From an uncultured Clostridia bacterium (GTDB taxonomy: Bacteria > Bacillota > Clostridia > Oscillospirales > Ruminococcaceae): a stretch of DNA of 64,000 bases. A model generated the notes under the pieces. The model did not search any database. It was not told the origin of the DNA and was given only the letters and a program-made list of their open reading frames with translations. Each line of letters begins with the position of its first letter. The stretch's first letter is position 1. Positions 7,054 through 33,022 of the stretch are shown here, in pieces. The stretch lies in contig CANQKY010000001.1 in the NCBI GenBank assembly GCA_947624575.1, positions 4,964-68,963 of the forward strand. The letters run 5' to 3'. Position numbers and translations under genes: made by a program.

Positions 7054-8163
7054 ATGTCAGAATACAAATTAGAATTAAAGCAGATCGTAGACTATCCACG
7101 GTGTCGGATCTATCGACAGTTTATCCGACAGCTGATCGCAGACCGGAGCATTCGCACGAGCGGAGGCTCCGGTCTTTTTTACTTTACCGTTCTTTCGAGC
7201 TATGCGAACTTCCGCACCTCATATAAGCGAATCGACGGTATCGGTTATACGATCTATCCCGGCGAGTGGCTTTGTCGGGTGAGTGAACTCTGCGAATGGT
7301 TTCGTACACGGTTTCATCATCAGGCGTTGTCGATCTTAAAGGATTTGCAGGATCGGCACTTGATTACCTATGCCCTGCTTGGACGAGGCAAGCTGGTCAA
7401 ATACAAGATCAAAGACTGGAGTAAAAGCAACCGCGTGCTGGACTATAATGCTCCATGCCAAAAGGATACGGGCTTCTTCTTTCTGCCGGTATCCTTGGCA
7501 AATGAACTCATCAGTGCAGGGCGCTGCTCTGAGATGGACGCCGTTTTAGATCTGTGGATCAACACGGTCTATCACGATGAGCGGGTACAGGGCTCCGAGG
7601 CAGGACCGGTTGTTTATCTGCGCAACGGTACCGGCTGCCCATTGACAGGTTACGCAGAGCTTGCAGAACGCTGGGGTGTATCGAAAGCGACAGCAGGGAG
7701 ATATATTCGCAAGCTGAAAGAGATGGAGTATATCACGGTGATTTCCTTTGCCGGAACATATGGCAGCGCAATCTATCTGCAAAAGTACCTCTCGATGATG
7801 TTCCAGATATCAGATGTCTTAGTGGATAAGGACGAAGTGGCTATGGCACTGCATATCGAGGTTGATCCGTCGAAAGAAGCGGCAGAGGTACCGGAAAGCA
7901 GCGGTTCAAATATGCCGTGCAGCGGTTCAGATTCGCACATTGAGATCATTCTGCAAAAGGTCGGGAAGATCCTGTCGGCACAAGGCTTCCCGTGCGTTCA
8001 TTGCCCATGGATCGAATATAAGTTATTACCATTATTAGACGATTGCAGAGGAACCGTTTTATCCTGGAAAGATAGAGAGCAGAGGTTTTTGCTTGTCCTT
8101 CGGTGTAAAGACAAACAGGAGATCTTCCGCTTTGAGATCAACCGGAAGGAGGCGTCGGTATGA
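7054..8163 (+). CDS. HTH DNA-binding protein of conjugative-element type
   Basis: 369 aa from ATG 7054 (AGGAGG RBS). HTH-like segment GYAELAERWGVSKATAGRYIRKLKEMEYI. Paired with the sigma-like gene downstream, as I recall from the ends of Firmicute conjugative elements. Confidence 0.5.
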   Translation: MSEYKLELKQIVDYPRCRIYRQFIRQLIADRSIRTSGGSGLFYFTVLSSYANFRTSYKRIDGIGYTIYPGEWLCRVSELCEWFRTRFHHQALSILKDLQDRHLITYALLGRGKLVKYKIKDWSKSNRVLDYNAPCQKDTGFFFLPVSLANELISAGRCSEMDAVLDLWINTVYHDERVQGSEAGPVVYLRNGTGCPLTGYAELAERWGVSKATAGRYIRKLKEMEYITVISFAGTYGSAIYLQKYLSMMFQISDVLVDKDEVAMALHIEVDPSKEAAEVPESSGSNMPCSGSDSHIEIILQKVGKILSAQGFPCVHCPWIEYKLLPLLDDCRGTVLSWKDREQRFLLVLRCKDKQEIFRFEINRKEASV

Positions 8164-8693
8164 GAAAGACGGTACCAATGAACACAGAAGACAATCCGTT
8201 ATATCATGATACATGGATGTTGTTGCGGAAATACCGGGATGTGGTATGGAGCTTGGAACTGTCCGTACAGCAAGCCAGACGGAAGTTTCAGATCGAGTTC
8301 GGGAGCAGCATCGAGGACTTTTTGGAGTCAATTTATCTTGCCGGCGTAGATTTTGCCGATTCCGGCATTGAGGAACACGCTCGGAGTATAGAGCGCAGTT
8401 ATCAAATGCTGAGGCTGATGGAAAACGCGGTAAACCTGCTTCGTAATAAGCACAAATTCGGTGAAGCATATTACTGGATCCTCTATTACAGCTTTTTATC
8501 CCCGCAGCAGTACCGCAATGTCGATGAGATCATTGAGGAGCTTCGCCCTCATATTCGGGATATCAGCCGCCGTACCTACTACCGCAAACGCAAAGAAGCC
8601 ATAGAAGTGCTTTCTTCCGTTTTGTGGGGGTATTCATCGAGGGATAGTCTAAAGCTTTTGGAACATTTCTGCCCGGATAGTGAAACTGTTTGA
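8160..8693 (+). CDS. Sigma-70 region-4-like HTH regulator (Tn916 ORF7-like class)
   Basis: 177 aa with ATGA overlap with the upstream gene. C-terminal ISRRTYYRKRKEAIEVLSSVLWGY resembles sigma-factor-like HTH proteins of conjugative transposons. Confidence 0.4.
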   Translation: MRKTVPMNTEDNPLYHDTWMLLRKYRDVVWSLELSVQQARRKFQIEFGSSIEDFLESIYLAGVDFADSGIEEHARSIERSYQMLRLMENAVNLLRNKHKFGEAYYWILYYSFLSPQQYRNVDEIIEELRPHIRDISRRTYYRKRKEAIEVLSSVLWGYSSRDSLKLLEHFCPDSETV

Positions 8694-8711
8694 TATAAGT
8701 TAATAAGGAAG

Positions 8712-8742
8712 TCCCGGCCATTCTGTTATGGAATAGCCGGGA
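8712..8742 (+). terminator. Hairpin terminator after the sigma-like gene
   Basis: TCCCGGC...GCCGGGA stem with inner ATTC/GAAT pairs, followed by T-rich sequence. Confidence 0.45.
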
Positions 8743-11958: not shown

Positions 11959-11996
11959 AGGCGGTGAGATGTAACATCTTACCGCCTAAATTTTTG
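11959..11996 (+). terminator. Intrinsic terminator-like hairpin
   Basis: AGGCGGTGAGAT-GTAAC-ATCTTACCGCCT followed by AAATTTTT. A second hairpin AAAAAGCTGTC...GACAGCTTTTT lies at 11859-11894. Confidence 0.5.
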
Positions 11997-12060: not shown

Positions 12061-12089
12061 TTTACAAAACAGAATGATGAGGATATACT
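12061..12089 (+). promoter_or_regulatory. Candidate promoter of the RiPP operon
   Basis: TTTACA, 17-nt spacer, TATACT. About 350 nt upstream of the first rSAM start. Confidence 0.4.
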
Positions 12090-12437
12090 ACAGACAAAAC
12101 AGTATGATTAACACAATGATTAAGCAGCCATCATACGCTGAATTTTGGCATTGTATCAGCCATTTTAGAAGCACAGTCTATAATAATACTTATCCTTTTT
12201 GGGTGGGAGATATGTCCGAAATTGTTAAAGTTGATTACTTTTTGGTATCAGAAAAGGGAAATAGCTCGCCGTATTATTTCGATACAGAGTCCATTTTTTT
12301 ACTGTAAGAGTAATAATGTGTTTCGTATGGAAAAAGTTGTGCTCCAGTATATGGTGGTGAGAGTGGCTGAGCGGGCAAATTCAAGGTGTGCATATATTAT
12401 AGGCATCATAGAAAAACTGACAGAAAGGATTTGCGGT

Positions 12438-13865
12438 ATGATTTCGGATATACAGTATTGCTGTTTAAAAGAAGATTATGTTCTTTGGCAGACTCAGGAA
12501 CGACTATATCTGTGTGAAATTAAAACAGGGCGGCCAGTGGCAGCACTTTCTACTGGGGTAACGCCTTTGTTGCTGACCTTAAGTGGTAATCGTCTTCTTG
12601 GGGACATCTTGGAGCATTGGGCTAAAACACAAAAAATACCTTTACAAGAACTGACAGAGAAAGTACAGCATCTTTTGAAATCCCTTGCACCATTTCTCAT
12701 GTTTTCTGATAACCTTATTTCGGATGCAACTTGTCCTAAACTGATAATAGGGGATTTTCCATATCATCCTGTTGCCGTAAAAAGTGAAAAACCTCTCTAT
12801 GTGACTTTCAACATAACCGATCGTTGTAGTCGAAATTGTATCTATTGTTACATGGATTCCATTTACACCAAACAGATGGACAACTCCCATCGTTTTCTTT
12901 CGGTAGAACGGTTTGCAGATGTTTTAAAAGAGTGCAAGGATATTGGTGTACAAGCTATTGAAGTCGGTGGTGGAGATCCTTTGAATCATCCTCAAATTTT
13001 AGAATATGTCCGTCTGTTAAGTCAAAGCAAAATTCCAAATGTGCTAATTTCCACTAAGAAATATGTGCAGGAAGAATTGGCTCTACGCTTCAAAGAGGCA
13101 GGGTTGCGGGAAATCCAAATCAGTTTGGATTCGGCAGATAAAGAGATCGCCGATATTTTGATGGGAGAGCGTGGAGCATATGAGGAGGTGGTGAAGACCA
13201 TTCACAACTTTCGAAAAGCAGGCATAGATGTAAAAGTAAATGCGGTGTTGACTTCGTTAAATTGCACTAATTTCAGCAATTTGATCCAACTACTGGAGTC
13301 CATGGGTGTTTCTACTCTATCTGCCAATTATTATGGCGCATCCTGCGGACGCCATGTTGAAAGTTTATTTCCTAAAGTGGAGCAGCTTCAGGAACTGAAA
13401 AAACAGGTAGATGGAATCACTCCTTCTTTGAAAACGCTCCATTTAAGAATGCCGGATTTTCAAGAAACATTTTACGAAAACAAATGGAGTAGTGATCGGC
13501 AGATCCGCAGTTATTATCGCAGTTATTGTGGCGCCATGAAGACTCGAATTTTGGTAAATCCAGATGGTACAGTGGGGTATTGTGCCTATATCACGCAAGA
13601 TCTTTCCCGTAAAAATGGACTGATATTTGGGAATTTACATACTCAAAGCTTAATGGAGATTTGGCAATCGCCGTCAGTGGAAGATATCCTGACCCCAAAT
13701 GTACAAAAATTCCGCGGAACTCTGTGTGCCGATTGTAGGGATTTTGAAAAGTGTTATCCAAAACGTTGCTTTTTGCGGTCAATCCTGCAATATGACACTC
13801 CTTTTGAAAAAGATCCGGATTGTCGCTATTGGAACGATATGCATTGTAAAGTAATAAGAGATTGA
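12438..13865 (+). CDS. Radical SAM/SPASM peptide maturase with N-terminal PqqD-like RRE (rSAM-1)
   Basis: CxxxCxxC cluster motif in DRCSRNCIYCY. An N-terminal ~85-aa wHTH-like segment (LKEDYVLWQTQERLYLCEIKTGRPVAALSTGVTPLLLTL...) sits upstream of the core. C-terminal SPASM pattern YCGAMKTRILVNPDGTVGYC ... CADCRDFEKCYPKRC. Start at ATG 12438 (GAAAGGA RBS) preferred over track start 12222. Confidence 0.8.
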   Translation: MISDIQYCCLKEDYVLWQTQERLYLCEIKTGRPVAALSTGVTPLLLTLSGNRLLGDILEHWAKTQKIPLQELTEKVQHLLKSLAPFLMFSDNLISDATCPKLIIGDFPYHPVAVKSEKPLYVTFNITDRCSRNCIYCYMDSIYTKQMDNSHRFLSVERFADVLKECKDIGVQAIEVGGGDPLNHPQILEYVRLLSQSKIPNVLISTKKYVQEELALRFKEAGLREIQISLDSADKEIADILMGERGAYEEVVKTIHNFRKAGIDVKVNAVLTSLNCTNFSNLIQLLESMGVSTLSANYYGASCGRHVESLFPKVEQLQELKKQVDGITPSLKTLHLRMPDFQETFYENKWSSDRQIRSYYRSYCGAMKTRILVNPDGTVGYCAYITQDLSRKNGLIFGNLHTQSLMEIWQSPSVEDILTPNVQKFRGTLCADCRDFEKCYPKRCFLRSILQYDTPFEKDPDCRYWNDMHCKVIRD

Positions 13866-13880
13866 AACAGGAGCGAGCAA

Positions 13881-15011
13881 ATGAGAAGTGGAACACCAAT
13901 ATATATTTTGCCTATGCCGACACAGGTAGTTTATGCGCTTTATGTAGCTTTTTGCGGTATACAATCTGAGCCCCCTGGGCAAAATGGCTTGGCGCATTTA
14001 TATGAACATTTAAGTATTCGAAAATATCTTTTGCAACTCGGCTGCAATTTAGATGAAGGATGTATGATTAACGGATTTACCAAACGGCAATATACTGGGT
14101 ATGTGTTTCAGGCGGATAAACGGTATGCGCCACAAGTCCTTGAGGGGATTGGCCGACTGGAAAATATGTCTGCAAGGGATGGATTTTCACCTAAGGATGT
14201 GAGCAATGAAAAGAATAAAATCCGTAGAGAAAACAGTCAGCGAGATACAATTGAAACACGCTTAATAGATAAACTGATGCGAACAATTTTTTTAAAAGAA
14301 AGTTATGGGAATTCTATTTTCTGCTCGGAAAAATGTCTAGACAATCTTGGAAAAGGAGCTCTGACAAATTATGCTATCTTGGTAGAACAGGCATCTAGAG
14401 GGTTGTTTTTGGTAGGAAATCCTGCTTTTTTCCCAAAAGAAACAGCATATGGAAAAGAAGTTTGGCAGCAAAATATTCCCCAATTATGTTTTGCCGAGCC
14501 TAAACCGCCCCATATGTGGGAAAAAGGGAAACACTATGCTGTTGGTTATGTGCAAGAACCATTTGACGGGTTTCGGGAATTTTTGGTTGCTTCGCTTTCC
14601 TCTTCTTTCCTAAAAATGGCCCTTTTAAGATGGCACGGAATCCATGTGGGCGGAGAAGTAAAATTATACATCGATCAGGCAGTATCGATCTTTTGGATGA
14701 CTGATACTCAAATTGACGATATACAGAACAAAACCATACAATGGACAACCCTTTGCAGAAACGTATTGAATGATTCCCGCTTTTTTGAAGAGTTTGAAAA
14801 GGCAAAAAAGCTATATCTATATCAACTTTTAAGAACGATTGATACACCGGAATATTTGGCAATGTATCTTTTTAAAACTGCCTGTCTGCTACACACACTT
14901 CCAGAGGTAGATAAAATATTGGTAGATGTGCATTCCGTTACGGCACAGGAGGTGCGGTCAATGATTGCACGAATGTTAGAAAAACAGATTGTATATAGCG
15001 TTGTTTTATAA
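13881..15011 (+). CDS. M16-family (insulinase/pitrilysin-like) zinc protease, candidate leader peptidase
   Basis: Inverted zinc motif HxxEH = HLYEH in GLAHLYEHLS. CAGGAG RBS. Sits between the two rSAM genes. Confidence 0.65.
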   Translation: MRSGTPIYILPMPTQVVYALYVAFCGIQSEPPGQNGLAHLYEHLSIRKYLLQLGCNLDEGCMINGFTKRQYTGYVFQADKRYAPQVLEGIGRLENMSARDGFSPKDVSNEKNKIRRENSQRDTIETRLIDKLMRTIFLKESYGNSIFCSEKCLDNLGKGALTNYAILVEQASRGLFLVGNPAFFPKETAYGKEVWQQNIPQLCFAEPKPPHMWEKGKHYAVGYVQEPFDGFREFLVASLSSSFLKMALLRWHGIHVGGEVKLYIDQAVSIFWMTDTQIDDIQNKTIQWTTLCRNVLNDSRFFEEFEKAKKLYLYQLLRTIDTPEYLAMYLFKTACLLHTLPEVDKILVDVHSVTAQEVRSMIARMLEKQIVYSVVL

Positions 15012-15026: not shown

Positions 15027-16427
15027 ATGAATATGAAAATTAAGTATATCATCTGCGAGCGAGCAAATGTGGAATTACGAAATGGAAAAGCATTTTTGCA
15101 GTGTAGCGAAAAGTATGATCAGAGCAAAAACTACCGTGTAACTAGAATGGGCTGCTTGATTTTGGCGCAATTTGACGGAAGGCGCACATTAGGAGACATT
15201 ATTTCTCATATTAGTGAACTTACGGCTCTTACCCCAGAAAAAGCCATGAAGATGGTAGAAAAAGTAGCCGATATGTTTTCTTACTATATCGTAGAGGCAA
15301 AAGGGCGCACGCGAGATTTCCCCTCTGAAAAAACTATTTGTTCCTCAGTAAAGACCTCTACATATGATGAACTGAAATTAGAACCCAGTATATTTCCCTC
15401 TACTATCTACTATTCTGCGACAAATCGTTGCGGATTCTATTGTCGATACTGTTATAGGGATTCCAACAGCAACCGTGAGGAAACTTATTATTTGACAGCA
15501 ACGCGGTGGCAAGAACTTTTAAAAGAAGCGGAAGGAACCAACTGCGGTAGTTTTGATATCGGCGGTGGCGAACCATTCTTTCGCAAGGATATAATGGATA
15601 TTTTGGGCGTAGCAAAGAAAGCAGGGCTAAAAACCAAGATATCTACCAAACTTGGATTGTCGGAAGAAATTATGCGTGGATTACGCGAAACACAATTAGA
15701 TTCTCTGCAAGTTAGTTTGGATTCCTGCGATAAGGCGGTCTGTGCTTTTTTGACTGGTCAGACATACAGCTTTCAAATGGCAGAAAAAACCATCGACAAT
15801 GCCAATCGTCTAGGGCAAAAGATTCATGTGAATTGTGTTGTAAATAAATACAACATCGAAGGAATACCGAAGTTGATCGAATTTTTGGAAAAAAAGAAAG
15901 TTCCTACTTTGGGACTTACCAAGTATATCGCTTCCTGTGGACGAAACCAGTCCGATTTGTATGCCACTGAACAGCAATTTGATCAGTTAGACGAGTATAT
16001 TTATCAATATCGAAACAATAACCCCGCAATAGAGATTGATTATCAGTATTTACTGGGACGAACATTTGAAAAAATGAAGCAAACCGATCTAACTGCGCTA
16101 CGGGTCTTATGTGGCGGCGGAAAAGATCAATTGTATGTTCGTCATGACGGGGTCGTGGGGTTTTGTGATGCACTGTTGTATGATGATCATATTTTACTGG
16201 GTGATCTGAGCCGTCAAAGTATTTCCGAAGTATGGCGTTCTAGTGAAGTAAAAAAATGGAACACACCCGATCCAGAACCGTTTAAAAACACCATTTGTGG
16301 AGACTGTCGCCTTTTCTACAAGTGTTTCCCGTATCGCTGCTACAAGCGATCTATTATTGCTTATAACACGCCCTATGCTTTGGATCCATTTTGCCCAAGA
16401 GGTGAAAAATTATTATGTGTGATGTGA
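15027..16427 (+). CDS. Radical SAM/SPASM peptide maturase with N-terminal PqqD-like RRE (rSAM-2)
   Basis: Cluster motif in NRCGFYCRYCY. N-terminal RRE-like segment (VELRNGKAFLQCSEKYDQSKNYRVTRMGCLILAQFDGRRTLGDII). SPASM tail LCGGGKDQLYVRHDGVVGFC ... CGDCRLFYKCFPYRC. Confidence 0.8.
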   Translation: MNMKIKYIICERANVELRNGKAFLQCSEKYDQSKNYRVTRMGCLILAQFDGRRTLGDIISHISELTALTPEKAMKMVEKVADMFSYYIVEAKGRTRDFPSEKTICSSVKTSTYDELKLEPSIFPSTIYYSATNRCGFYCRYCYRDSNSNREETYYLTATRWQELLKEAEGTNCGSFDIGGGEPFFRKDIMDILGVAKKAGLKTKISTKLGLSEEIMRGLRETQLDSLQVSLDSCDKAVCAFLTGQTYSFQMAEKTIDNANRLGQKIHVNCVVNKYNIEGIPKLIEFLEKKKVPTLGLTKYIASCGRNQSDLYATEQQFDQLDEYIYQYRNNNPAIEIDYQYLLGRTFEKMKQTDLTALRVLCGGGKDQLYVRHDGVVGFCDALLYDDHILLGDLSRQSISEVWRSSEVKKWNTPDPEPFKNTICGDCRLFYKCFPYRCYKRSIIAYNTPYALDPFCPRGEKLLCVM

Positions 16428-17449
16428 TATATAAAGCGCCAATGGAAAAATACGTAATTATGTTGCCCCGGGAACAATCTGCTACTCGATTTTATATTCG
16501 AACACCTTACGGTGCAATCTGCGTATTCACCAATTTAGAAAAATTGGCGGAGGTGTTGGTGCCACCATCTATGATTCAAACTGATCTTACAGGAATGTCT
16601 CCCGTGGCAAATTTGTGTGCTTTTTTTGATCCCCATGCTATAGTGAATCAAGAAATTCGGGATGGTAAATTTTTAGAGCGATCTGACCCGAGGTATATTC
16701 CCAATGTGGAAAACACCTCATATCATCGTGGAGATACAGAATTTTTAGTTTATCAATATCCATTTAAAGGGATCCTCTGCCTGCTCTTAGATATTCTATG
16801 CGGTAGTGTGACTGCGGCAAGAGAGGAAAGTTTAATCTTGTTGGCCCGCATGGCACTAAAAAAATTAATTGTCCGTCTGTATGCAACAGATGGATATTAT
16901 CCTCTCCATGCGGCAGCGGTGGGAACAGGTAATAGCGCTTATGTCTTTGTGGCAGGAGGACGTGCGGGAAAATCGACTATTTTTATGAAACTCTTAGAGT
17001 ATGGATACATTCCTATAAATGATGATCTAGTGTTTATTAAAGAAACAAAAGATGGATTAAACTGTACCGGGTTCCCTATTATTCCCAGCGTGCGGAAGGA
17101 AAGTGCTGTTTTTTTGAACAGTAAGCTTGAAAATATACCATCTCTACGTGGCTTCGAAGGAGAATATTATGTAAATGTGTGGCATTCAGAATTTGATCCA
17201 TACAAAACATATCGTTTGGTGCGGTTGTATTATCCAAAATATGGATACAAAGAGTTTTGTGTTTTTCCGCCTAAGCCTGATTTGATGAAGAAACGATTGA
17301 TAAAATCCTTTTTTACACATCAGCAGGTGGCTATCGACAAACAAGAGCAGGCTGTAAATGTGTTAAACAAACTACTCCATATCTCGGCTTTGCAGATACA
17401 AAACACAGATGATATGGATGCTTTTGCGAAGGGTTTTCCGTTTGTTTAG
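16415..17449 (+). CDS. HPr kinase/phosphorylase-like P-loop protein (RiPP-associated, ScmC/PadeK-like class)
   Basis: P-loop GGRAGKSTIFMKLLEYGYIPINDDLVFI resembles the HprK C-terminal domain. Overlaps the rSAM-2 stop (translational coupling). Confidence 0.6.
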   Translation: MCDVIYKAPMEKYVIMLPREQSATRFYIRTPYGAICVFTNLEKLAEVLVPPSMIQTDLTGMSPVANLCAFFDPHAIVNQEIRDGKFLERSDPRYIPNVENTSYHRGDTEFLVYQYPFKGILCLLLDILCGSVTAAREESLILLARMALKKLIVRLYATDGYYPLHAAAVGTGNSAYVFVAGGRAGKSTIFMKLLEYGYIPINDDLVFIKETKDGLNCTGFPIIPSVRKESAVFLNSKLENIPSLRGFEGEYYVNVWHSEFDPYKTYRLVRLYYPKYGYKEFCVFPPKPDLMKKRLIKSFFTHQQVAIDKQEQAVNVLNKLLHISALQIQNTDDMDAFAKGFPFV

Positions 17450-17450: not shown

Positions 17451-17472
17451 TCCAAATGAGATGTTTGATCAC
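17451..17472. repeat. Left arm of the inverted repeat bracketing the precursor gene array
   Basis: TCCAAATGAGATGTTTGATCAC. Its reverse complement occurs at 17997-18019 with one extra T. Confidence 0.95.
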
Positions 17473-17492: not shown

Positions 17493-17630
17493 GTGATAGA
17501 CATAGAAGATATGATGAGTTTAGAGGATATGCAGGAAATCATCGAACTTTCCATGAATGATTTTGATGATATGGAAATTTTCTGTGTGTGTACAGGGACC
17601 TGTGTAACACTACGTTGTGTTCACGGGTAA
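17493..17630 (+). CDS. RiPP precursor peptide 1 (45 aa)
   Basis: AGGAGG RBS 6 nt upstream of GTG 17493 (alternative ATG 17511). Translation (M)IDIEDMMSLEDMQEIIELSMNDFDDMEIFCVCTGTCVTLRCVHG. Shares the DDMEIFCxCTGTCVTLRC block with two downstream ORFs despite synonymous codon divergence. Confidence 0.75.
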   Translation: MIDIEDMMSLEDMQEIIELSMNDFDDMEIFCVCTGTCVTLRCVHG

Positions 17631-17667
17631 TATTACTTAACAGACGCTAAAAAAGGAGGTATGGCCT

Positions 17668-17805
17668 ATGGAAGACATGCTTTTGAGCAAAGAGGAGTTG
17701 CAAGAACTATTTTCTGTCAACGCTAACGATCTGGATGACATGGAAATCTTTTGCTATTGTACGGGTACTTGCGTCACTCTTCGTTGCACAACTGGCAACA
17801 ACTAA
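17668..17805 (+). CDS. RiPP precursor peptide 2 (45 aa)
   Basis: AGGAGG RBS 8 nt upstream of ATG. Translation MEDMLLSKEELQELFSVNANDLDDMEIFCYCTGTCVTLRCTTGNN. Confidence 0.8.
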   Translation: MEDMLLSKEELQELFSVNANDLDDMEIFCYCTGTCVTLRCTTGNN

Positions 17806-17829
17806 TCGATAATCGAAAGGAGAATAGCA

Positions 17830-17964
17830 ATGAAAGATAACACGGAAATGACGGTAGAAGAAATGACTGCATTGCAATCACTACTGGTGAATGACTTTGA
17901 AGACATGGAAATCTTTTGCTATTGTACGGGTACTTGCGTCACTCTTCGTTGCGGTGTTAATTAA
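17830..17964 (+). CDS. RiPP precursor peptide 3 (44 aa)
   Basis: AAGGAGA RBS 6 nt upstream of ATG. Translation MKDNTEMTVEEMTALQSLLVNDFEDMEIFCYCTGTCVTLRCGVN. The 51-nt stretch 17902-17952 is identical to 17737-17787. Confidence 0.8.
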   Translation: MKDNTEMTVEEMTALQSLLVNDFEDMEIFCYCTGTCVTLRCGVN

Positions 17965-17996: not shown

Positions 17997-18019
17997 GTGA
18001 TCAAACATCTCATTTTGGA
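17997..18019. repeat. Right arm of the inverted repeat bracketing the precursor gene array
   Basis: GTGATCAAACATCTCATTTTGGA, about 30 nt upstream of the ABC transporter RBS. Confidence 0.95.
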
Positions 18020-18052: not shown

Positions 18053-19870
18053 ATGCATCGCAACAGAAACAGTTCTTCATATAGGTCTAGGAAGAATATC
18101 AGATTTATGCTTTTTCATTTGTGGAAATGTTCGCCTTCGCGGGTGATTTGGTCTTTTGTCACCGCACTTTTCGGAAATGCTATCGAGATCGGCATAAGTG
18201 TATATCTTTTTCGCTATATCATAAACGGCATTCAGGCCGGATATTCTTTTGCGAGGCTGTTTTTAGTCACTTCGGCGGTTATGGGTATCGCCTTGCTTAT
18301 GCTCTTCTTTTTGGATTGGTACAACAACGTTTACATTCCTCGTTCTGATTTAAAAATAAGCAAATATTTTGATACTTTGCTGTTTCAAAAGGCTCGGCAG
18401 ATCGATCTTGAATACTTCGATAAGACGGAATTTTACAATCAATACACAAAAGCGGTACAAGAAAGCTCCAAAAGAGCCATCGGCGTGCTGAACGATCTTT
18501 CTTCTGTGTTTTCTGCCGTCACAGTGCTGTTCGGGTTGGGAACGATTCTTTTATCCATGAATCCGATTTTGATCGCATTTACATTTATGCCAATCGTGAT
18601 ATCGCTGCCACTCAGTGTGCTGCGTAATAAACTTAATTTCAAATTTCAGCAGGAAACAACGCCGGAAAACCGAAAAATAGAATATTACAAACGGTTGCTC
18701 TATCAAAAAGAATATGCCAAAGAGATCAAGCTGACAAAAATCTTTCCGGTTTTGTTGTCTAAATATGTCACCACTAACGAGAACATGAGCAAACTTTCGG
18801 CAAAATTCGGCGTTCGTCGTGCGGGCTTAGGAATGTTGGAAACGTTTAATCAGGTGGCTGTAGTTATGTATGCTACCTATGTCTATTTAATATACAGCAT
18901 TACGGTGTCTAAAAGACTAATGATCGGGGATTTTGTGGCTTTATATAATGCCGTTCGCAGCGCGGAATATTCGCTTCGCCGTATAATTGAGATTGTGCCG
19001 CGCCTTAACGAACATAGCCTTTTTATCCAAAATGTGCGTGATTTTCTTAACTTGCAGCCTCATATTATTGAACCGGAAAATCCCATACCGATCTCAGACG
19101 GAGACTTTGATTTGTCCATTGAAGCCGTACAGTTTACATATGACGATCGAAGCCGCTTGATCTTACGGGACATCTGTATGCGAATTGAACAGAAACAAAA
19201 GATAGCCATTGTTGGACGAAACGGCGCGGGGAAATCCACTCTTGTCAAAACGATCATGCGGTTATACGAACCCAAGCAGGGATGCGTGTATTTCGGCGGC
19301 AAGGATTACAGGAATTATTCGCTTGAAGAATACCACGCATTGTTTGGAACGGTGTTTCAAGATTTCGCTTTATATCATATAAGCGTGGCAGAAAACGTGG
19401 CTATGGATTTTGTCACGCAGGAAAATGAGCCGCACATCCGCAAAGTGCTGAAAAAAGTGGGGCTTTACGATAAGATTATGGCAGAAGGCAAAGATATCTA
19501 TCACGACGTTTCAAAAGAGTTTTCCGAAGACGGCATAGTATTCTCCGGCGGCGAAGAACAAAAGCTCGCTATCGCAAGGGCGTTTGTTCACCCCAACAAG
19601 ATATTGGTTTTTGACGAGGCTTCAAGCGCGCTCGATCCCATTTCGGAATATGAAATGAACCATATGATTTTGGATATGGCAAAGGATAAAACGGTTATAT
19701 TGATATCTCATCGCCTGTCATCCACACGCGATGCGGACAGGATCTATTATTTGGAAAACGGTCAGATTCTCGAAGAGGGCACCCACGAGGAACTCATGGC
19801 GCAAAACGGCGGCTATGCGCGTATGTTCAGTTTGCAGGCGGAACAGTATCTGGGTAAAGAAAATGGCTAA
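18053..19870 (+). CDS. ABC exporter, fused permease/ATPase (no C39 peptidase domain)
   Basis: Six-TM N-terminal half. Walker A GRNGAGKST, signature FSGGEEQK, Walker B ILVFDEASSALD. Confidence 0.85.
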   Translation: MHRNRNSSSYRSRKNIRFMLFHLWKCSPSRVIWSFVTALFGNAIEIGISVYLFRYIINGIQAGYSFARLFLVTSAVMGIALLMLFFLDWYNNVYIPRSDLKISKYFDTLLFQKARQIDLEYFDKTEFYNQYTKAVQESSKRAIGVLNDLSSVFSAVTVLFGLGTILLSMNPILIAFTFMPIVISLPLSVLRNKLNFKFQQETTPENRKIEYYKRLLYQKEYAKEIKLTKIFPVLLSKYVTTNENMSKLSAKFGVRRAGLGMLETFNQVAVVMYATYVYLIYSITVSKRLMIGDFVALYNAVRSAEYSLRRIIEIVPRLNEHSLFIQNVRDFLNLQPHIIEPENPIPISDGDFDLSIEAVQFTYDDRSRLILRDICMRIEQKQKIAIVGRNGAGKSTLVKTIMRLYEPKQGCVYFGGKDYRNYSLEEYHALFGTVFQDFALYHISVAENVAMDFVTQENEPHIRKVLKKVGLYDKIMAEGKDIYHDVSKEFSEDGIVFSGGEEQKLAIARAFVHPNKILVFDEASSALDPISEYEMNHMILDMAKDKTVILISHRLSSTRDADRIYYLENGQILEEGTHEELMAQNGGYARMFSLQAEQYLGKENG

Positions 19871-20208: not shown

Positions 20209-21726
20209 ATGACATGCGATGAGTATATTTTTAAATATTTGATTAGTAATTTTTCGACTCTTGAATCAATTAAAATGTTAAGAGAAAATTCGCTTTACAT
20301 TAAATTTGCAGATAAATTTGCAAAAAAAGACAACAAAAAACTTATAGAAATGAATCGTTTATTTAACTCATTTAATATTACTGCAGCACGCAACATCCTT
20401 GGCGATATTGAAACAATGCATACTGAGTATATTATTTTTAAAGGTTTTGTGCTTTCACAACGTTTATATGGGAGCCCAGATCAAAGGATATGGGGCGACA
20501 TTGATTTTTATGTTAAATCACAGTATTTTGATAAGGTCTATTTTTACTTACTTAAAAAAGGGTATGAATTGACTTATAAAGATGGGTTATCTAATCCACA
20601 TCATGTAGGATTGAAAAAAGGAGGAAAACTACTAGAACTTCATAGAACTATTTTTCATCCTAAAGTTGAAATCAACGAAGATTTCTTAAGAAAAAATCTG
20701 CAACATTATATAATTTCAGACTCCAAAAATACAACATTTGAAGTTACAACATTTAATGAAACCGCTACCATCTTGCACCTAATTTATCATTTATATATGG
20801 ATACATATTTTGCCTCATTTAATTTGAAGTCGATATTTACAAGCAGAAAATTGCCAAAAGCACGTCGGTTTTTATATCGTGCTTATGAAATAGCTCTTTT
20901 TTCAGAAAAGTATTATTGCAAAATAAATTGGACAGATATTCAAAATGATTTGACACATCAGAAATTTCGTATATTCTTCAAAAAAATGATATTAGATATT
21001 ATTGAGATTTTTCCAAATGCATTCCCGGAAAGCTTTTTGAATACTGTATTTAGGCTTAATTATATTGGCGATGAAAGGGATGAATTATATAGGTGTTTTA
21101 TGAAAGCCAATGACAAGGAAACAAGTAAAAATACACTATTATGCGATTATATCAATAATAAATGGCTCGCACGTAGGGAAAAGAACATATCAAAAAAGGT
21201 TGGCGACAGTATAACACTTAATAAGGCATCAAAAAATGGAAGCGAATATGATTTGAGTTGCTTTATAAGCACGGAAAAATCAGCGGAAGGATTGAATGTA
21301 GTTTTTAAGGTGTCAAATGACGATTTCTGCATTAGTGAAAGAAATGACTATAATACAATGATAAGTGACGGAGTTCATTTGTTACTTTGTGGAACTGAAG
21401 AATACTCTTACAATAGCATATTCTTCTTTCCAAAAGAAATCGACGGGAATATCGAGGTTATACCTTATGATGCACTTAACAATGAGACTTTGAGTGACGA
21501 TTTAATCAAGGCTGAATTTACAAAAACTGAAAATGAGTATTGTATTACTGCCGGATTCAGCAATGAGTTTTTACAAAAAAATCATCTAAATTTGTATTTA
21601 TATTTGGGACTAGTTATATCTGATTGTAGTAGCCATACACATTATCGAAAAAACAGCTTAATTCTTTCAGAGGAAGACTCGCAGTGGTATAATCCTATAT
21701 ATTTTGCAAAGTTTGATATGGCATAA
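20209..21726 (+). CDS. NTP_transf_5-type nucleotidyltransferase family protein with long C-terminal extension
   Basis: FKGFVLSQRLYGSPDQRIWGDIDFYV matches the core of the uncharacterised nucleotidyltransferase family found with PqqD/HprK-like genes. The likely start is ATG 20209 (MTCDEY); the track ORF begins at 20131. Confidence 0.55.
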   Translation: MTCDEYIFKYLISNFSTLESIKMLRENSLYIKFADKFAKKDNKKLIEMNRLFNSFNITAARNILGDIETMHTEYIIFKGFVLSQRLYGSPDQRIWGDIDFYVKSQYFDKVYFYLLKKGYELTYKDGLSNPHHVGLKKGGKLLELHRTIFHPKVEINEDFLRKNLQHYIISDSKNTTFEVTTFNETATILHLIYHLYMDTYFASFNLKSIFTSRKLPKARRFLYRAYEIALFSEKYYCKINWTDIQNDLTHQKFRIFFKKMILDIIEIFPNAFPESFLNTVFRLNYIGDERDELYRCFMKANDKETSKNTLLCDYINNKWLARREKNISKKVGDSITLNKASKNGSEYDLSCFISTEKSAEGLNVVFKVSNDDFCISERNDYNTMISDGVHLLLCGTEEYSYNSIFFFPKEIDGNIEVIPYDALNNETLSDDLIKAEFTKTENEYCITAGFSNEFLQKNHLNLYLYLGLVISDCSSHTHYRKNSLILSEEDSQWYNPIYFAKFDMA

Positions 21727-21776: not shown

Positions 21777-22928
21777 ATGCCACATTGCAATAAAAAAATG
21801 CTATCGTTTTTTCTGACAACTAAATGCAACCTATGCTGCGTGTATTGCTATAACGCCACAGAACGTAATGCCCTTGAAGAGCAAAGCGTCTCATTAGAGA
21901 TAACCAAATATGCTATTGATTGGTATTTCGAGAATAACCAAAGTCGCCATATTCGTTTTTATGGTCCGGGTGAGCCTACGCAGGAATTCGCAAAAATGAG
22001 GGAAATTACCGAATATGCGAAGAATCATTCTAATGGCGGAGATAAAGTAACCGTTGAAATTCAGACTAATGGCGTATTCACAGAAGAAGTTCGAAAGTGG
22101 ATTTTGGATAATGTAAATATTGTGTGGATGTCTTTTGATGGTATGAAGGATATTCAAAACAGTAATCGCCCATTAAATCCGAAATACAAATCCATATTCG
22201 ATGAAAGGACTTCTGCGGATATATTAGAGGGCAATGTGAAATGGCTAATTCAAAATACCGGCAAAAGAGATTTAATGGTTGGTGCTCGTGTTACGATTAC
22301 AGATAGCAATATAGACAGACAGAAGGAATTGGTTGATTACTTTTATTCATTGGGGATAAGATATGTTTGGACGAATCCACTTTTTTATTCAGTAGGACAG
22401 GTTCCCGTCAGTGAAGATGAAAGAAAGCGTAAGGATTTTCATTTTGACATGAACAAGTATGTCGATGAGTATCTTCTTGCGTATACTTATGCAAAAGAAA
22501 AAGGTTTATTTTGGGGTAGTTTTTTGACAATAAATTTTGATGGAACAGCTGAACATCATTGTCGTTGCTGTACTCCGATGGAAGCTCCTCACATAACAAC
22601 GGATGGCTATATTTCAGCCTGTGATATGGCACTCAAGGGTTTGGATGCACACCATATGGATTGCTTTATCGTTGCAAAATGGAATGACCATACAAAACAA
22701 TTTGACTGGGATATGGATAAAGTTAGAACACTCTATGAGCGAAAATCCACCAATCTGTCGGATTGTTATAATTGCCCTGTCAAACTTCACTGTGGCGGGT
22801 GTTGTCTTGGCGAAACTATGAATGAATTTGGTTGTCTCGATAAACATAATTTTACAAAATGTAACGCAATTAGAAGACTTTATAAAGCACTTGGGCCTTG
22901 CAGGCCATACACTTATTTACATCCTTAA
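21777..22928 (+). CDS. Radical SAM/SPASM enzyme without RRE (rSAM-3)
   Basis: Cluster motif CNLCCVYC within FFLTTKCNLCCVYCYN. C-terminal Cys-rich SPASM-like HHCRCCTPMEAPHITTDGYISAC ... CYNCPVKLHCGGCC. Confidence 0.75.
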   Translation: MPHCNKKMLSFFLTTKCNLCCVYCYNATERNALEEQSVSLEITKYAIDWYFENNQSRHIRFYGPGEPTQEFAKMREITEYAKNHSNGGDKVTVEIQTNGVFTEEVRKWILDNVNIVWMSFDGMKDIQNSNRPLNPKYKSIFDERTSADILEGNVKWLIQNTGKRDLMVGARVTITDSNIDRQKELVDYFYSLGIRYVWTNPLFYSVGQVPVSEDERKRKDFHFDMNKYVDEYLLAYTYAKEKGLFWGSFLTINFDGTAEHHCRCCTPMEAPHITTDGYISACDMALKGLDAHHMDCFIVAKWNDHTKQFDWDMDKVRTLYERKSTNLSDCYNCPVKLHCGGCCLGETMNEFGCLDKHNFTKCNAIRRLYKALGPCRPYTYLHP

Positions 22929-22959: not shown

Positions 22960-23712
22960 ATGAAAGTTTATGTCGTTAATGGTGCTGCTCATGAGGGCTT
23001 TGGTGAAGCTACCGCGCGAACTTTAATTGAAGAGGGATGCAAGGTTATAGGATTGTACGAAAAAGAAGACGAAAAAAATGTAGTAAAATTAAAACAAGAA
23101 TTTTCTGATTCTCAATTTGAATGCATTTGCATTGATTTGTTTGATTTTAACAAGTTAAAATTAACTCTTGCACATATTGACAGCTCAATTGATGGATTTG
23201 TTAATGCTGCTTTTACTTTTGACATGGAAAATGTTGATGATTTCAACTATGATTTAGCCGAAAAGCTTTTCAGAGCAAATTACCATGCCCCAATGCTTAT
23301 GGCGATTGAATTAAAAAAGAAAATGAGAACCGGTTCCTCAATTGTTTTTGTCACTAGTACCGAATCGGATAGGGGTTCATTCGGCGGGATTTCTTATGCG
23401 GCTTCTAAAGCGGCAATTCATAATATGATTAAATCTCTTGCATGCAATTGGGGCAAATCTAGTCGAATTAGAGTTAATGCTGTTGCAGCAGGCTGGATCG
23501 GCGGCGAAATGGACACAGACGGTCCTTTTGAGGTTTCCATGAACATTACCCCGTTGGGAAGGTTGGGACATGCTGATGAAATTGCAAATGCGGTGTCATT
23601 TCTTTTATCGGATAAAGCGAGCTTTATAAATGCTCAAGTTACCTATGTGGATGGGGGCTACCTTGCCGTTGATGATATAGCTAAATATGAGTTTGAAGTT
23701 TCTAAGAAATAA
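22960..23712 (+). CDS. Short-chain dehydrogenase/reductase (SDR)
   Basis: 250 aa from ATG 22960 (AAAGGAGA RBS). Catalytic YAASKAAIHNM (YxxxK). The N-terminal nucleotide-binding turn VVNGAAHEGFG is atypical. Confidence 0.7.
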   Translation: MKVYVVNGAAHEGFGEATARTLIEEGCKVIGLYEKEDEKNVVKLKQEFSDSQFECICIDLFDFNKLKLTLAHIDSSIDGFVNAAFTFDMENVDDFNYDLAEKLFRANYHAPMLMAIELKKKMRTGSSIVFVTSTESDRGSFGGISYAASKAAIHNMIKSLACNWGKSSRIRVNAVAAGWIGGEMDTDGPFEVSMNITPLGRLGHADEIANAVSFLLSDKASFINAQVTYVDGGYLAVDDIAKYEFEVSKK

Positions 23713-26001: not shown

Positions 26002-26385
26002 TTGAAGAACAAACCTGTTATCCAAAAGCAGAAACCTCGCCGGCATATCGAGTGGGGACGCTTGCTGTTCACACCCTTTTTGATCGTTACCGTCGCAGCC
26101 GGCGCGTCTATGCAGGCGTTTGCGGCAGGCACGGATATGTGGAGCAAAGCGACAGAGATCATGAAGGATGTCTATAATCAGATCCTGCTGATCTCCACCA
26201 TTGCCGCGATCGTCACCGCATCGATTGCTTTACTTTTGATGAACTTCTCCAAATCGGGGCGTACAGTGGACGAATCCCGCTCATGGCTGAAGCGTATCAT
26301 CATAACCTGGGCGATCCTCAACGGACTTGGCTTTATCATGGCGTACATTACTCCCTTCTTCAGCGGCGGTCAATGGAACGGATAA
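26002..26385 (+). CDS. VirB2/TrbC-like small membrane protein (pilin-like T4SS component candidate)
   Basis: TTG start after a GGAGGA RBS. Signal-peptide-like N-terminus ending AFAAG, then two hydrophobic helices. 127 aa. Confidence 0.45.
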   Translation: MKNKPVIQKQKPRRHIEWGRLLFTPFLIVTVAAGASMQAFAAGTDMWSKATEIMKDVYNQILLISTIAAIVTASIALLLMNFSKSGRTVDESRSWLKRIIITWAILNGLGFIMAYITPFFSGGQWNG

Positions 26386-26415
26386 CAATCGTCGAGGCGG
26401 AAAGGAGATGACGCC

Positions 26416-27126
26416 GTGGGCATACTGGACGGAATCGTAGAATGGATCGCGGAGCAGGTCATGCATGGATTGGATCTGATCAATTCATCGGTTTTGGGCG
26501 CATTGGGCTGCAATATGAACACCTTTCTGCGGTATTTTCCGGCTGCCGACACCATGTATAAAATATTCGTGGCGCTGGCAATCGGGCTGATACTTTTGAA
26601 TTGGGTATGGCAGTTGTTTAAGAATTACGGATTATCCGCCGGAATTGAGGCGGAGGATCCGATCAAGCTTTCGCTGCGCTCGATTCTCTTTATTTTGATC
26701 GTCTATTTTTCGGATCAAATTGTAGATACGGTTTTGAAGATCGGCGGAACACCGTACAGCTGGATTTTGAACTCGGAATTACCGCCGCTGGACTTTGCCA
26801 GCTTCAACAGTGTGCTGCTGGTCATTCTCGGCGTCTGTGCGAGCGGCGCCGTGTCAATCATCGCGCTGATCCTGATCCTCATTCTGGCATGGAACTATAT
26901 CAAATTGCTGTTTGAGGCAGCGGAGCGGTATATCATGCTCGGTGTTTTGGTTTATACAGCTCCTGTGGCTCTGGCAATGGGAGCATCGCAGACGACAAGT
27001 AATATTTTTAAAAGCTGGTGCCGCATGTTCGGCGGTCAGGTCTTCTTGCTTTTGATGAATGCATGGTGTCTGCGGCTGTTTACTTCCATGGTCGGCTCAT
27101 TCTTGTCTAATCCCTTATCTTTGTAA
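26416..27126 (+). CDS. Polytopic membrane protein, VirB6/TrbL-like candidate
   Basis: 236 aa with about five hydrophobic helices. Located between the pilin-like gene and VirB4. Confidence 0.5.
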   Translation: MGILDGIVEWIAEQVMHGLDLINSSVLGALGCNMNTFLRYFPAADTMYKIFVALAIGLILLNWVWQLFKNYGLSAGIEAEDPIKLSLRSILFILIVYFSDQIVDTVLKIGGTPYSWILNSELPPLDFASFNSVLLVILGVCASGAVSIIALILILILAWNYIKLLFEAAERYIMLGVLVYTAPVALAMGASQTTSNIFKSWCRMFGGQVFLLLMNAWCLRLFTSMVGSFLSNPLSL

Positions 27127-27138
27127 AAGGAGGATGTA

Positions 27139-28050
27139 ATGAAACGAAAAGCGTTTATCATATCCGTTGTCGCTGCTGTCTGTCTTTGCACCGTTTCCGC
27201 ACTTGCACTGACGGAAAGCGAAGTACAGCAGCAGGTCGATAGCGTCGGGCGCGAAGCAGTCACGGGGAATATCTTTATATGGTTCTTGTGTGCGATTGCC
27301 TTTTTGAAGATATCGCAAAAGATCGACAGCTTCATGTCCTCGCTGGGCATTCATGTGGGTCATACCGGCGGCTCCATGCTTGCAGAAGCACTGATTGCAA
27401 TGCGCGGTGTCGGCGTTGCAAAGAGTATAGCGGACGGACGCACAGGCGGTTCTTTCGGCGGCGGATCGTCTGCCGGATCGTCCGGTGGCTCCGGCTTTAT
27501 GAGCGGCGGTCTTGCCGGTGTGGTAAGCCGTAAATTCACCCATAATGCCGTGCAAAACGCTACGGGAGCGAAGGATGGCGGCATGGCAGGTGTTGCCTAT
27601 AACTCCTCTGTGAACAAGGGAGGCGGATTTGCCAACCGCGTGATCGGCAATGTGGCAACCGGGAATATTGCGGCAACAGGTTCTATCAGCGGTGAAAAAG
27701 CGCCGGATGCGCTTATGTCGTATCTGGGATATACCGCTCTCGGAAAAGATGCCGAAGATGTTCCGTCCTTTTCCAATGTGGAGATCGGCGGCGGTCGCAT
27801 TACGGCGACCGAAACCTCGTCAGAGCATCCGGAAGGGATCGCTATGGCAATGTACCATACAGATCAATATGCCGCTCCGGAAGGCGACTATACGACTGTA
27901 ACAGCGGCAGACGGTACAAGCTGGTATAAACAGTATGCGACAGAGGCTGTAGAACGAAAGCCCTATAAAGCACCGGACGGCACGGTTGCTTACCACGAAA
28001 ATGTGGTCAAGAAACTGCCGAAAGCACCGCCCAGGAAGGATAGGCTGTAA
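27139..28050 (+). CDS. Secreted/membrane Gly-Ser-rich protein of unknown function
   Basis: Signal peptide MKRKAFIISVVAAVCLCTVSALA. GGSFGGGSSAGSSGGSG linker. Confidence 0.45.
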   Translation: MKRKAFIISVVAAVCLCTVSALALTESEVQQQVDSVGREAVTGNIFIWFLCAIAFLKISQKIDSFMSSLGIHVGHTGGSMLAEALIAMRGVGVAKSIADGRTGGSFGGGSSAGSSGGSGFMSGGLAGVVSRKFTHNAVQNATGAKDGGMAGVAYNSSVNKGGGFANRVIGNVATGNIAATGSISGEKAPDALMSYLGYTALGKDAEDVPSFSNVEIGGGRITATETSSEHPEGIAMAMYHTDQYAAPEGDYTTVTAADGTSWYKQYATEAVERKPYKAPDGTVAYHENVVKKLPKAPPRKDRL

Positions 28051-29444: not shown

Positions 29445-29465
29445 TGATGAAAAGAGGTTATGACT

Positions 29466-29630
29466 ATGTTCTGTATTATTTCATTTATTGCCGGCGGCTT
29501 ATTCGGCGTGGTATTTATGTGCCTGTTTCAAATAAACCGATATGAAACGGAGAGAGAATACCGCATGGAACAGTCCGGTATGGAAAATGGCAAAGGAGAA
29601 TATGATGCATCAGCCGGAAGAACAATATGA
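29466..29630 (+). CDS. Small membrane protein (DUF3789-like), not in ORF track
   Basis: 54-aa ORF with an AGAGG RBS 8 nt upstream. Hydrophobic N-terminus MFCIISFIAGGLFGVVFMCLFQ. Confidence 0.45.
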   Translation: MFCIISFIAGGLFGVVFMCLFQINRYETEREYRMEQSGMENGKGEYDASAGRTI

Positions 29631-32439: not shown

Positions 32440-32516
32440 TACGGATCGAGTGCATGTGATGCACACGAAAGCAACCTGGCTATATGTAACTTTTCTTACA
32501 CAGATGAATATACTGG

Positions 32517-32545
32517 TTGACAAAGGGATATAATTATGATACAAT
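32517..32545 (+). promoter_or_regulatory. Near-consensus promoter of the phd-type antitoxin gene
   Basis: TTGACA, 17-nt spacer, TACAAT. Confidence 0.6.
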
Positions 32546-32570
32546 CAGGTCATGAAAAGGAGATGTTACC

Positions 32571-32828
32571 ATGCCTCAAATTATTCCCATTAAGGACTTG
32601 AAGAAGACCAGTGAACTGTCGCAGATGTGCAAGGAAGCTACAGAACCGATCTATATCACGAAAAACGGTTATGGAGATATGGTGATTATGAGTATGGAAA
32701 TGTATGAGCAAAAAATGTTCCTGCTTGAGGCTTACGCAAAACTTGCCGCTGCGGAACAACAGGTTCAGGACGGAAAGGTGCTGGATGCCGGTGACGGGCT
32801 CAAAAGCATAAGAGAAATGATAAAGTAG
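32571..32828 (+). CDS. Phd/YefM-family antitoxin
   Basis: MPQIIPIKDLKKTSELSQMCKEATEPIYITKNGYGDMVIMSMEMYE is a typical Phd/YefM N-terminal domain. AAGGAGA RBS. Confidence 0.75.
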   Translation: MPQIIPIKDLKKTSELSQMCKEATEPIYITKNGYGDMVIMSMEMYEQKMFLLEAYAKLAAAEQQVQDGKVLDAGDGLKSIREMIK

Positions 32829-33022
32829 ATCAGTGCTATGCCCGTCTTCGTGAGAATCCGTTTATCTATGCAACCAGTGATGATGCCCGGCTTGCAAAAG
32901 AAGGATACCGTAAAGCACTGATTAAAAACTATCTTCTCATGTTCAAAGTGAACGAATCTGAGAAAACGGTGATAATATACCGTTTTTTCTACGGTGCGAG
33001 GGATTATTTCACACTGCTCTAA
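32829..33022 (+). pseudogene. 5'-truncated ParE/RelE-family toxin gene
   Basis: The open frame encodes ...DKVDQCYARLRENPFIYATSDDARLAKEGYRKALIKNYLLMFKVNESEKTVIIYRFFYGARDYFTLL*. It has no in-frame start until about 27 codons before the stop. The N-terminal ~35 aa of the family are missing. Confidence 0.55.

Follow-up and report, generated by a model that had tools for sequence, protein, structure and literature searches.

What do three short cysteine-rich open reading frames (ORFs), standing in tandem between a set of putative modifying enzymes and an ABC exporter, encode? We addressed this question for P1, P2, and P3, which lie in a 64,000-nt stretch (hereafter, the window) of contig CANQKY010000001.1 from an uncultured Clostridia bacterium of the Ruminococcaceae (assembly GCA_947624575.1). 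Judged by their conservation across lineages and by their biosynthetic context, P1-P3 are real tandem precursor genes of a peptide that is synthesized ribosomally and modified post-translationally (RiPP). Specifically, the sequence evidence indicates that they are probably paralogous precursors of a secreted RiPP that is modified by radical S-adenosylmethionine (rSAM) enzymes and that works in the manner of ruminococcin C or thuricin CD.

The three ORFs had been proposed in an earlier note on this DNA, and both their coordinates and their translations were reproduced on the + strand. Each start codon is preceded by a Shine-Dalgarno site, namely AAGGAGG at 6 nt (P1), AAGGAGG at 8 nt (P2), and AAGGAGA at 6 nt (P3), as had been described. 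The note had also reported the genes as missing from the ORF track; they are indeed absent there, but this is an effect of the length cutoff, and all three are called in the public NCBI and ENA gene calls. Its count of the 16 codons of MEIFCxCTGTCVTLRC in P1 and P2 (four identical, 11 synonymous, and one nonsynonymous) was exact upon recounting, and the purifying selection that it read from this count was upheld, as strong, by Nei-Gojobori estimates, in which the proportion of nonsynonymous differences (pN) in the core is 0.06-0.32 where that of synonymous differences (pS) is saturated, at least 0.65. The leaders are acidic and divergent relative to the conserved core, with a leader pN of 0.34-0.77. 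Further, nucleotide differences in the core fall on codon positions 1, 2, and 3 at a ratio of 28:11:65. When homologous short ORFs beside rSAM homologs were compared, a check that the note had suggested, the three-peptide array was found to recur with a constrained core in two other contigs, L008 and L011.

The locus in L008 is syntenic with that of the window, as it encodes an rSAM protein, an M16 peptidase, a second rSAM protein, a 339-aa HprK-like protein, and three tandem peptides, Q1 (...DDLEDVEVLCVCTGTCVLIKCAFG), Q2 (...DDLEDVEIFNYCTGVCVTLRCLTGNN), and Q3 (...EFLEDVEILSFCTGSCIALRCGVN). Contigs L009 and L011 come from another sample and represent the same lineage as L008 (89-94% nucleotide identity); in L011, the three peptides (R1-R3) are followed by an ABC exporter that is 52% identical to the exporter in the window. 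A third lineage, represented by L010, carries one peptide (S3, ...SELDDFEVLCVCTGTCVAARCGVE) directly upstream of an exporter that is 47% identical to that in the window, and the S3 tail (GVE) is similar to the P3 tail (GVN). Four additional ENA contigs (L001-L004), at 99.9-100% identity, are from the strain of the window itself and are uninformative about evolution. Between the window and L008, 11-14 of the 18 residues encoded by an 18-codon core are identical, despite enzymes that are only 23% (M16), 38% (rSAM-1 and the HprK-like protein), and 53% (rSAM-2) identical. In L008, the place that the ABC exporter takes in L011 is occupied by an IS110-family transposase (7914-8732, - strand) downstream of the peptides, and the similarity of the two contigs ends at approximately 7810; an insertion or rearrangement has thus displaced the exporter in the L008 strain.

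The tails of the peptides pair by position (P1 with Q1, xxG; P2 with Q2, xTGNN; P3 with Q3, GVN). Hence, the triplication is older than the divergence of the two lineages with full arrays, and each paralog has been kept since. More recent exchange is evident within the window lineage. The tract shared by P2 and P3 was confirmed at 51 nt, which is the maximal identical stretch, and, of the two origins that the earlier note had offered for it (recent duplication or gene conversion), our comparison shows gene conversion specific to this lineage, because Q2 and Q3 differ at 16 nt in the same 18 codons at which P2 and P3 are identical.

Across the family, the conserved block can be written as (F/L)(D/E)D(M/V/F)E(I/V)(F/L)-x-x-C-T-G-x-C-(V/I)-x-x-(R/K)-C. 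The spacing of four Cys that had been given for the peptides (C-x-C-x3-C-x4-C) is true of those in the window but does not extend to the family, as the first of these Cys is replaced in four of the seven homologs (by N in Q2 and R2, and by S in Q3 and R3); thus, only three Cys are universal (C-T-G-x-C-x4-C). These three cluster within 10 residues near the C terminus, with 3-5 residues beyond the last Cys. Beside the first invariant Cys stands an invariant Thr, and an Asp and a Glu are invariant 7 and 5 residues upstream, respectively. A Gly no more than three residues past the last Cys (C-x0-2-G) and a leader Glu within an xEE(L/M) element are invariant as well. P1-P3 matched no family in Pfam or NCBIfam beyond noise (E of at least 0.02), and a literature search found no paper in which their core sequences are printed. 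One such noise-level match, of P1 to the model cinnamycin_RiPP (14.9 bits, with the model cutoff at 35; E = 0.032), was rejected as an artifact of composition; the cluster proteins contain no lanthionine synthetase domain, be it LanB/C, LanM, LanKC, or LanL.

The peptide family is very rare, with three deep lineages among approximately 15 billion predicted proteins. A word-indexed search with P2 across 5.8 billion clusters returned the window's own peptides only, and an exhaustive profile search with the three peptides across 1.84 billion representatives added only P0022, P0027, and P0028, with four repeat proteins (P0023-P0026) rejected as spurious. Among 185,579 species-representative genomes, nothing matched either the rSAM-2 alignment or a degenerate DNA pattern of the core. 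A strict pattern had zero matches in the JGI metagenomes, and viral contigs had zero matches; a relaxed pattern gave 86 matches in the JGI data that, after translation, were attributable to chance (no acidic leader, no Met start, and wrong context). For rSAM-2, only two relatives were found, both at 53% identity. P0011 (37% identity; L005 8272-11395, and L006), the closest outside protein to rSAM-1, directly follows a YcaO protein, which is a different RiPP setting; it was uninformative, as its contig ends downstream and no similar peptide was seen.

The biosynthetic context of P1-P3 is a codirectional string of genes that encode rSAM/SPASM-1, an M16 peptidase, rSAM/SPASM-2, an HprK-like protein, P1-P2-P3, and an ABC exporter, separated by gaps of 15-88 nt or overlapping (Table 1). 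Both rSAM-1 and rSAM-2 match PF04055 and PF13186. The residues expected of active enzymes are intact in the window and in L008, specifically the CxxxCxxC motif and seven SPASM Cys of rSAM-1 and rSAM-2, the HxxEH of the M16 peptidase (HLSEH in L008), and the Walker A motif AGGRAGK(S/T)T of the HprK-like protein. The latter and its two orthologs all match HprK_rel_A/B and ScmC, although weakly. PqqD-like matches share one N-terminal position in five of the six rSAM-1 and rSAM-2 sequences, with subthreshold E values of 3e-4 to 0.03; the L008 ortholog of rSAM-1 gives the value of 3e-4, and P0011 matches as well. The start of rSAM-1 is ambiguous, with a TTG at 12222 in the mechanical ORF (547 aa), a 512-aa product in the ENA gene call, and an ATG at 12438 (475 aa), the last of which is likely the true start, given that the L008 ortholog, of 469 aa, aligns only from residue 79 onward. 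Downstream of the exporter, the nucleotidyltransferase-like gene may belong to a second transcription unit, as a 260-nt gap precedes it.

Table 1. Features of the precursor locus and its surroundings (window coordinates)
Feature	Position	Strand	Details
Terminator-like hairpin, strong	11959-11987		ahead of the promoter-like site
Promoter-like site TTTACA-17-TATACT	12061-12089	+	upstream of rSAM-1; consensus match only, candidate operon start
rSAM/SPASM maturase 1 (rSAM-1)	12222-13865	+	CxxxCxxC at residues 202-209; 7-Cys SPASM motif
M16-family (insulinase-like) metallopeptidase	13881-15011	+	candidate leader peptidase; PF00675, E = 1e-9; HxxEH intact (HLYEH)
rSAM/SPASM maturase 2 (rSAM-2)	15027-16427	+	466 aa; CxxxCxxC at 135-142; 7-Cys SPASM; weak PqqD/RRE-like region at 35-81
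HprK-related (ScmC-like) P-loop protein	16415-17449	+	344 aa; Walker A AGGRAGKST; no Pfam domain
19-nt inverted repeat, left arm	17454-17472	+	perfect
Precursor P1	17493-17630	+	45 aa; GTG start; MIDIEDMMSLEDMQEIIELSMNDFDDMEIFCVCTGTCVTLRCVHG; orthologs Q1/R1; tail xxG
Precursor P2	17668-17805	+	45 aa; MEDMLLSKEELQELFSVNANDLDDMEIFCYCTGTCVTLRCTTGNN; orthologs Q2/R2; tail xTGNN
Gene-conversion tract, copy 1	17737-17787	+	inside P2; identical to 17902-17952
Precursor P3	17830-17964	+	44 aa; MKDNTEMTVEEMTALQSLLVNDFEDMEIFCYCTGTCVTLRCGVN; orthologs Q3/R3; tail GVN
Gene-conversion tract, copy 2	17902-17952	+	inside P3; identical to 17737-17787
19-nt inverted repeat, right arm	17997-18015	+	perfect
ABC exporter	18053-19870	+	605 aa; fused permease and ATPase; without C39 peptidase domain
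PF14907 (NTP_transf_5) nucleotidyltransferase-like protein	20209-21726	+	505 aa in public gene calls; mechanical ORF starts at 20131
rSAM-3	21777-22928	+	383 aa; without N-terminal extension; CxxxCxxC at 17-24; C-terminal CxxCx5CxxxC
Short-chain dehydrogenase/reductase	22960-23712	+	250 aa as called in L001
C39-like hydrolase	28050-29444		conjugative element
VirB4-like ATPase	29542-32439		conjugative element
DUF6100	33557-34297		conjugative element
VirD4 coupling protein	35547-37421		conjugative element
TED/SpaA/TQ adhesin	39517-44613		conjugative element; 1698 aa

A plausible route from these genes to a product can be proposed. First, the acidic leader, with its xEE(L/M) element, would be bound by the PqqD-like domains of rSAM-1 and rSAM-2, acting as RiPP recognition elements (RREs). 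The two maturases, possibly complexed like TrnC and TrnD of thuricin CD, would then form intramolecular thioethers in which the three invariant Cys supply the thiols. Our leaning is toward S-C-alpha (sactionine) links whose acceptors would lie between or N-terminal to the Cys, an arrangement that would be inverted or short-range relative to those of classical sactipeptides. Next, the M16 peptidase would cut off the leader, plausibly before the (F/L)(D/E) dipeptide at the head of the conserved block, and the ABC transporter would export the products, which may work jointly or represent isoforms of a bacteriocin-like agent. Finally, tailoring of a phospho- or glycosyl-type, as in the lasso peptides of Firmicutes, may be contributed by the PF14907 nucleotidyltransferase and by the HprK-like protein, which could be a kinase acting on peptides or a scaffold.

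Of the characterized systems, the ruminococcin C regulon of Ruminococcus gnavus E1, which comprises rumC1-C5, the maturases RumMc1 and RumMc2, the M16 peptidase RumPc that cuts at /FE, and the exporter RumTc (PMC6760926), offers a close parallel in several respects. Shared features include tandem paralogous precursors, two rSAMs, an M16 leader peptidase, an exporter, and a gut-type Firmicute context, and the (F/L)(D/E) dipeptide of P1-P3 resembles the /FE site of RumPc. Other features differ. The precursors are unrelated in sequence, and the four Cys of RumC are spread over two hairpin domains parted by AGPAY, whereas the three of P1-P3 fall within 10 residues. Neither rSAM-1 nor rSAM-2 has the RumMC model among its 25 best listed matches, and the score of rSAM-3 on this model is 37 bits (cutoff, 720). 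Further, the window adds the HprK-like protein, the PF14907 nucleotidyltransferase, and rSAM-3.

Thuricin CD provides a second parallel, in that different precursors lie beside two rSAMs and the paralogs are kept as distinct components. Its maturases, TrnC and TrnD, act on two precursors and are functional solely in complex with each other (PMC12093266), and this obligate complex serves as a model for the conservation of both rSAM-1 and rSAM-2. However, thuricin CD has two components, relative to the three described here; it places its Cys donors N-terminally and its acceptors C-terminally, in a nested hairpin; and no homology to the window system was detected beyond the rSAM/SPASM fold.

The subtilosin A operon (sboA-albABCDEFG) encodes an RRE-rSAM/SPASM protein (AlbA), M16-type proteins (AlbE and AlbF), and an ABC transporter. 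rSAM-1 does match the AlbA model, at 71.5 bits, but this score lies far below the model cutoff of 850, and subtilosin A derives from a single precursor that is cyclized head to tail and has a classical hairpin. Cassettes of the SynChlorMet type and other HprK-related rSAM cassettes likewise combine an HprK-like P-loop protein with two rSAM/SPASM proteins, although the likeness is one of resemblance, with all of the corresponding models scoring far below cutoff in the window (ScmC, 16 against 125; HprK_rel_B, 20.7 against 200; ScmF, 90.7 against 400; ScmE, 64-70 against 400); a literature search on the SynChlorMet cassette found nothing. In Firmicute lasso peptides, an HprK homolog and a nucleotidyltransferase form a joint tailoring pair (PMC8498205), and both types of protein occur near P1-P3. 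Unlike those clusters, however, the window is without the lasso B and C enzymes.

Several observations weigh against the thioether-linked, secreted RiPP that we favor. rSAM-1 and rSAM-2 score 64-97 bits against NCBIfam models (MoaA, PqqE, NirJ, ScmF, GeoRSP, AlbA, and StsB) whose cutoffs are approximately 230-850, and the top models (MoaA, PqqE, and NirJ) are generic, so that they do not fix the chemistry. All of the PqqD matches are below the Pfam gathering score, and rSAM-1 of the window has none. With the Cys at the C-terminal end and so few residues after them, the peptides do not fit the classical sactipeptide layout of N-terminal donors and C-terminal acceptors. P1-P3 are also without a C-terminal Ser, the residue that is phosphorylated by the HprK homologs of lasso peptides. 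rSAM-3 and the nucleotidyltransferase are set off from the other genes by the 260-nt gap and a lower guanine-cytosine (GC) content, and the homologous contigs end earlier. Structure prediction gave AlphaFold models that were unusable (pLDDT of 34.5 for the HprK-like protein, from a single sequence, and 45.1 for rSAM-2, from three sequences), and searching PDB with a profile built from the HprK-like proteins returned no match.

The cutoffs of the curated sactisynthase models are not reached (AlbA as above; StsB, 67-68 against 625; RumMC, matched by rSAM-3 only, as above), but these scores do not exclude sactionine chemistry, because sactisynthases are paraphyletic and rSAM chemistry is unpredictable at such remote similarity (PMC10288494). 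For the same reason, sequence similarity does not discriminate between the link types (alpha versus beta or gamma carbon). As for the layout of the peptides, the earlier note had argued that the few residues after the last Cys leave no room for a hairpin. This argument does not settle the matter, since it counts C-terminal acceptors only, and the conserved block N-terminal to the Cys, (F/L)(D/E)D(M/V/F)E(I/V)(F/L), could supply acceptors if it is part of the core.

The alternative that survives best, although we consider it unlikely, is that P1-P3 are, as the earlier note had inferred, of the ranthipeptide type, with short-range thioethers to the beta or gamma carbons of nearby residues such as Thr, Asp, or Glu installed by rSAM-3, alone or together with rSAM-1 and rSAM-2. 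Like ranthipeptides and QhpC, P1-P3 are Cys-rich precursors of approximately 45 aa, and the clustering of their Cys near the C terminus would suit short-range thioethers, with potential acidic or hydroxylated acceptors near the Cys in the invariant Thr, Asp, and Glu described above. The best NCBIfam matches of rSAM-3 lie in the ranthipeptide clade and lend weak support, namely PapB (86.8 bits), QhpD (84), the SCIFF maturase (70.5), and CcpM (65), but all are far below cutoff (340, 453, and 425 for the first three, respectively). Moreover, the genes whose conservation is linked to the peptides are those of rSAM-1 and rSAM-2, not that of rSAM-3, which lies beyond the 260-nt gap in the segment of lower GC content, and rSAM-1 and rSAM-2 fall outside the PapB/CteB(SCIFF)/QhpD clade and show no preference for its models. 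Among ranthipeptide precursor models, the peptides fit neither SCIFF nor any other, and their acidic residues stand N-terminal to the Cys rather than in CxxxD repeats. No Cys-rich ORF that might serve as a separate substrate of rSAM-3 was found between 19.8 and 26.5 kb.

It is less probable still that the maturases form no thioether at all. They could, for example, catalyze an epimerization, a C-C or C-O link, or a change to the Thr or Gly of the CTG element, with the Cys serving as disulfides or metal ligands. The unpredictability of rSAM chemistry at such remote similarity and the paraphyly of sactisynthases (PMC10288494) leave scope for such activities, the top models of rSAM-1 and rSAM-2 are not those of thioether enzymes, and the invariant T, G, and R/K of the core are left unexplained if only thioethers are considered. 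Against this, three invariant Cys, an odd number, are ill-suited to a pure disulfide role, and the characterized systems of this architecture, with an RRE-rSAM/SPASM protein, an M16 peptidase, an exporter, and Cys-rich tandem precursors, all make thioethers.

Beyond the peptides and enzymes, the array is distinguished by a perfect 19-nt inverted repeat that encloses exactly P1-P2-P3, with arms 524 nt apart. The repeat is found nowhere else in the window, where 0.04 chance matches would be expected, and its long-range stem closes the array in both the minimum free energy and the centroid RNA folds. It probably forms a long-range RNA stem that isolates or stabilizes the precursor segment of the mRNA. 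The repeat is missing from L008 and L011, which instead carry, immediately downstream of the third peptide gene, a hairpin of 16 bp (L008 7730-7764, z = -7.7; L011 754-788, z = -5.6), whereas the window has no local hairpin after its third peptide gene (z = +0.65). The L008/L011 hairpin appears to act at the RNA level, because both substitutions between the two contigs keep pairing as G-U wobbles. Thus far, the two structures are probably best viewed as RNA-level devices that separate the precursor mRNA from that of the enzyme genes.

The geometry of the repeat, with perfect 19-bp arms 524 bp apart around exactly three genes, is also typical of invertible segments, such that the repeat could instead mark an inverton, a DNA switch that would silence the precursor cassette by inversion. 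We regard such a switch as quite improbable. The window ORFs that were scanned include no recombinase, and the window and the four independent assemblies of the same strain share one orientation, both of which make an inverton less likely than an RNA stem. Further, related lineages hold an RNA-type hairpin, with substitutions that preserve G-U pairing, at the equivalent position.

The remaining explanation, that P1-P3 are precursors of an intracellular cofactor of the PqqA/MftA type and not of a secreted product, draws on the PqqE and MftC-type models among the better matches of rSAM-1 and rSAM-2 and on the presence of PqqD-like domains, but it is made highly improbable by the ABC exporter that follows the peptides in three lineages, by the three diverged paralogs with distinct tails, by the lack of evident genes for dependent oxidoreductases, and by the extreme rarity of the locus and its location in an island beside a conjugative element.

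Returning to the secreted, rSAM-modified RiPP, the kind of system encoded here, an rSAM/SPASM RiPP with tandem precursors, is known. Its novelty lies in the motif of the core, in Cys that cluster at the C-terminal end, in three paralogs kept since before the two best-sampled lineages separated, and in the accessory set of HprK-like protein, PF14907 nucleotidyltransferase, and rSAM-3. A more far-reaching proposal, which we consider unlikely, is that the locus represents a new RiPP class, a three-component system in which the Cys of CTGxC-x4-C would be linked by paired rSAMs in a topology unseen in sactipeptides and ranthipeptides (such as one with N-terminal acceptors or contiguous microrings), tailored with phospho- or nucleotidyl groups by the HprK-like and PF14907 proteins, and expressed from an mRNA that would be excised via the 19-bp stem.

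The locus offers a lead for genome mining, as it joins a defined precursor motif to an enzyme set, has three natural sequence lineages available for comparison, and belongs to a family covered by no Pfam or NCBIfam model, or paper in the literature searched. The structure of its product would test whether "backwards" or short-range thioether rSAMs exist, given that the donor Cys are C-terminal and that the maturases are unclassifiable by sequence, and it would also feed into the problem of predicting rSAM chemistry. The retention of three distinct paralogs across deep divergence suggests multicomponent action like that of thuricin CD, a property that makes the system interesting with regard to gut antimicrobials of narrow spectrum. 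Finally, the inverted repeat that flanks the cassette provides a simple case in which to test how a single operon sets its precursor and enzyme levels.

The surroundings of the cluster bear on its history. Its GC content (approximately 10-26 kb) is 32-41%, with 32-37% in the part from 20 to 26 kb, relative to approximately 50% at 26-44 kb; given this lower GC content than that of the neighboring DNA, the cluster looks like a horizontally acquired island. A Firmicute-type conjugative element (26002-44613) adjoins it. The only plasmid match is to a human gut plasmid of Vescimonas fastidiosa, at 73% DNA identity. Downstream of the conjugation genes lie an ECF-type sigma factor (45545-46117) and an AbiEii-type nucleotidyltransferase toxin (48064-49038; region 47393-49038). 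Pairs of kinases and LytTR regulators often govern bacteriocin loci, and one such pair is encoded approximately 40 kb from the cluster, on the - strand at 59828-63254, where a SAM synthetase (59828-60874) lies next to a GHKL (HATPase_c_5) kinase (61110-62390) and a LytTR regulator (62445-63254).

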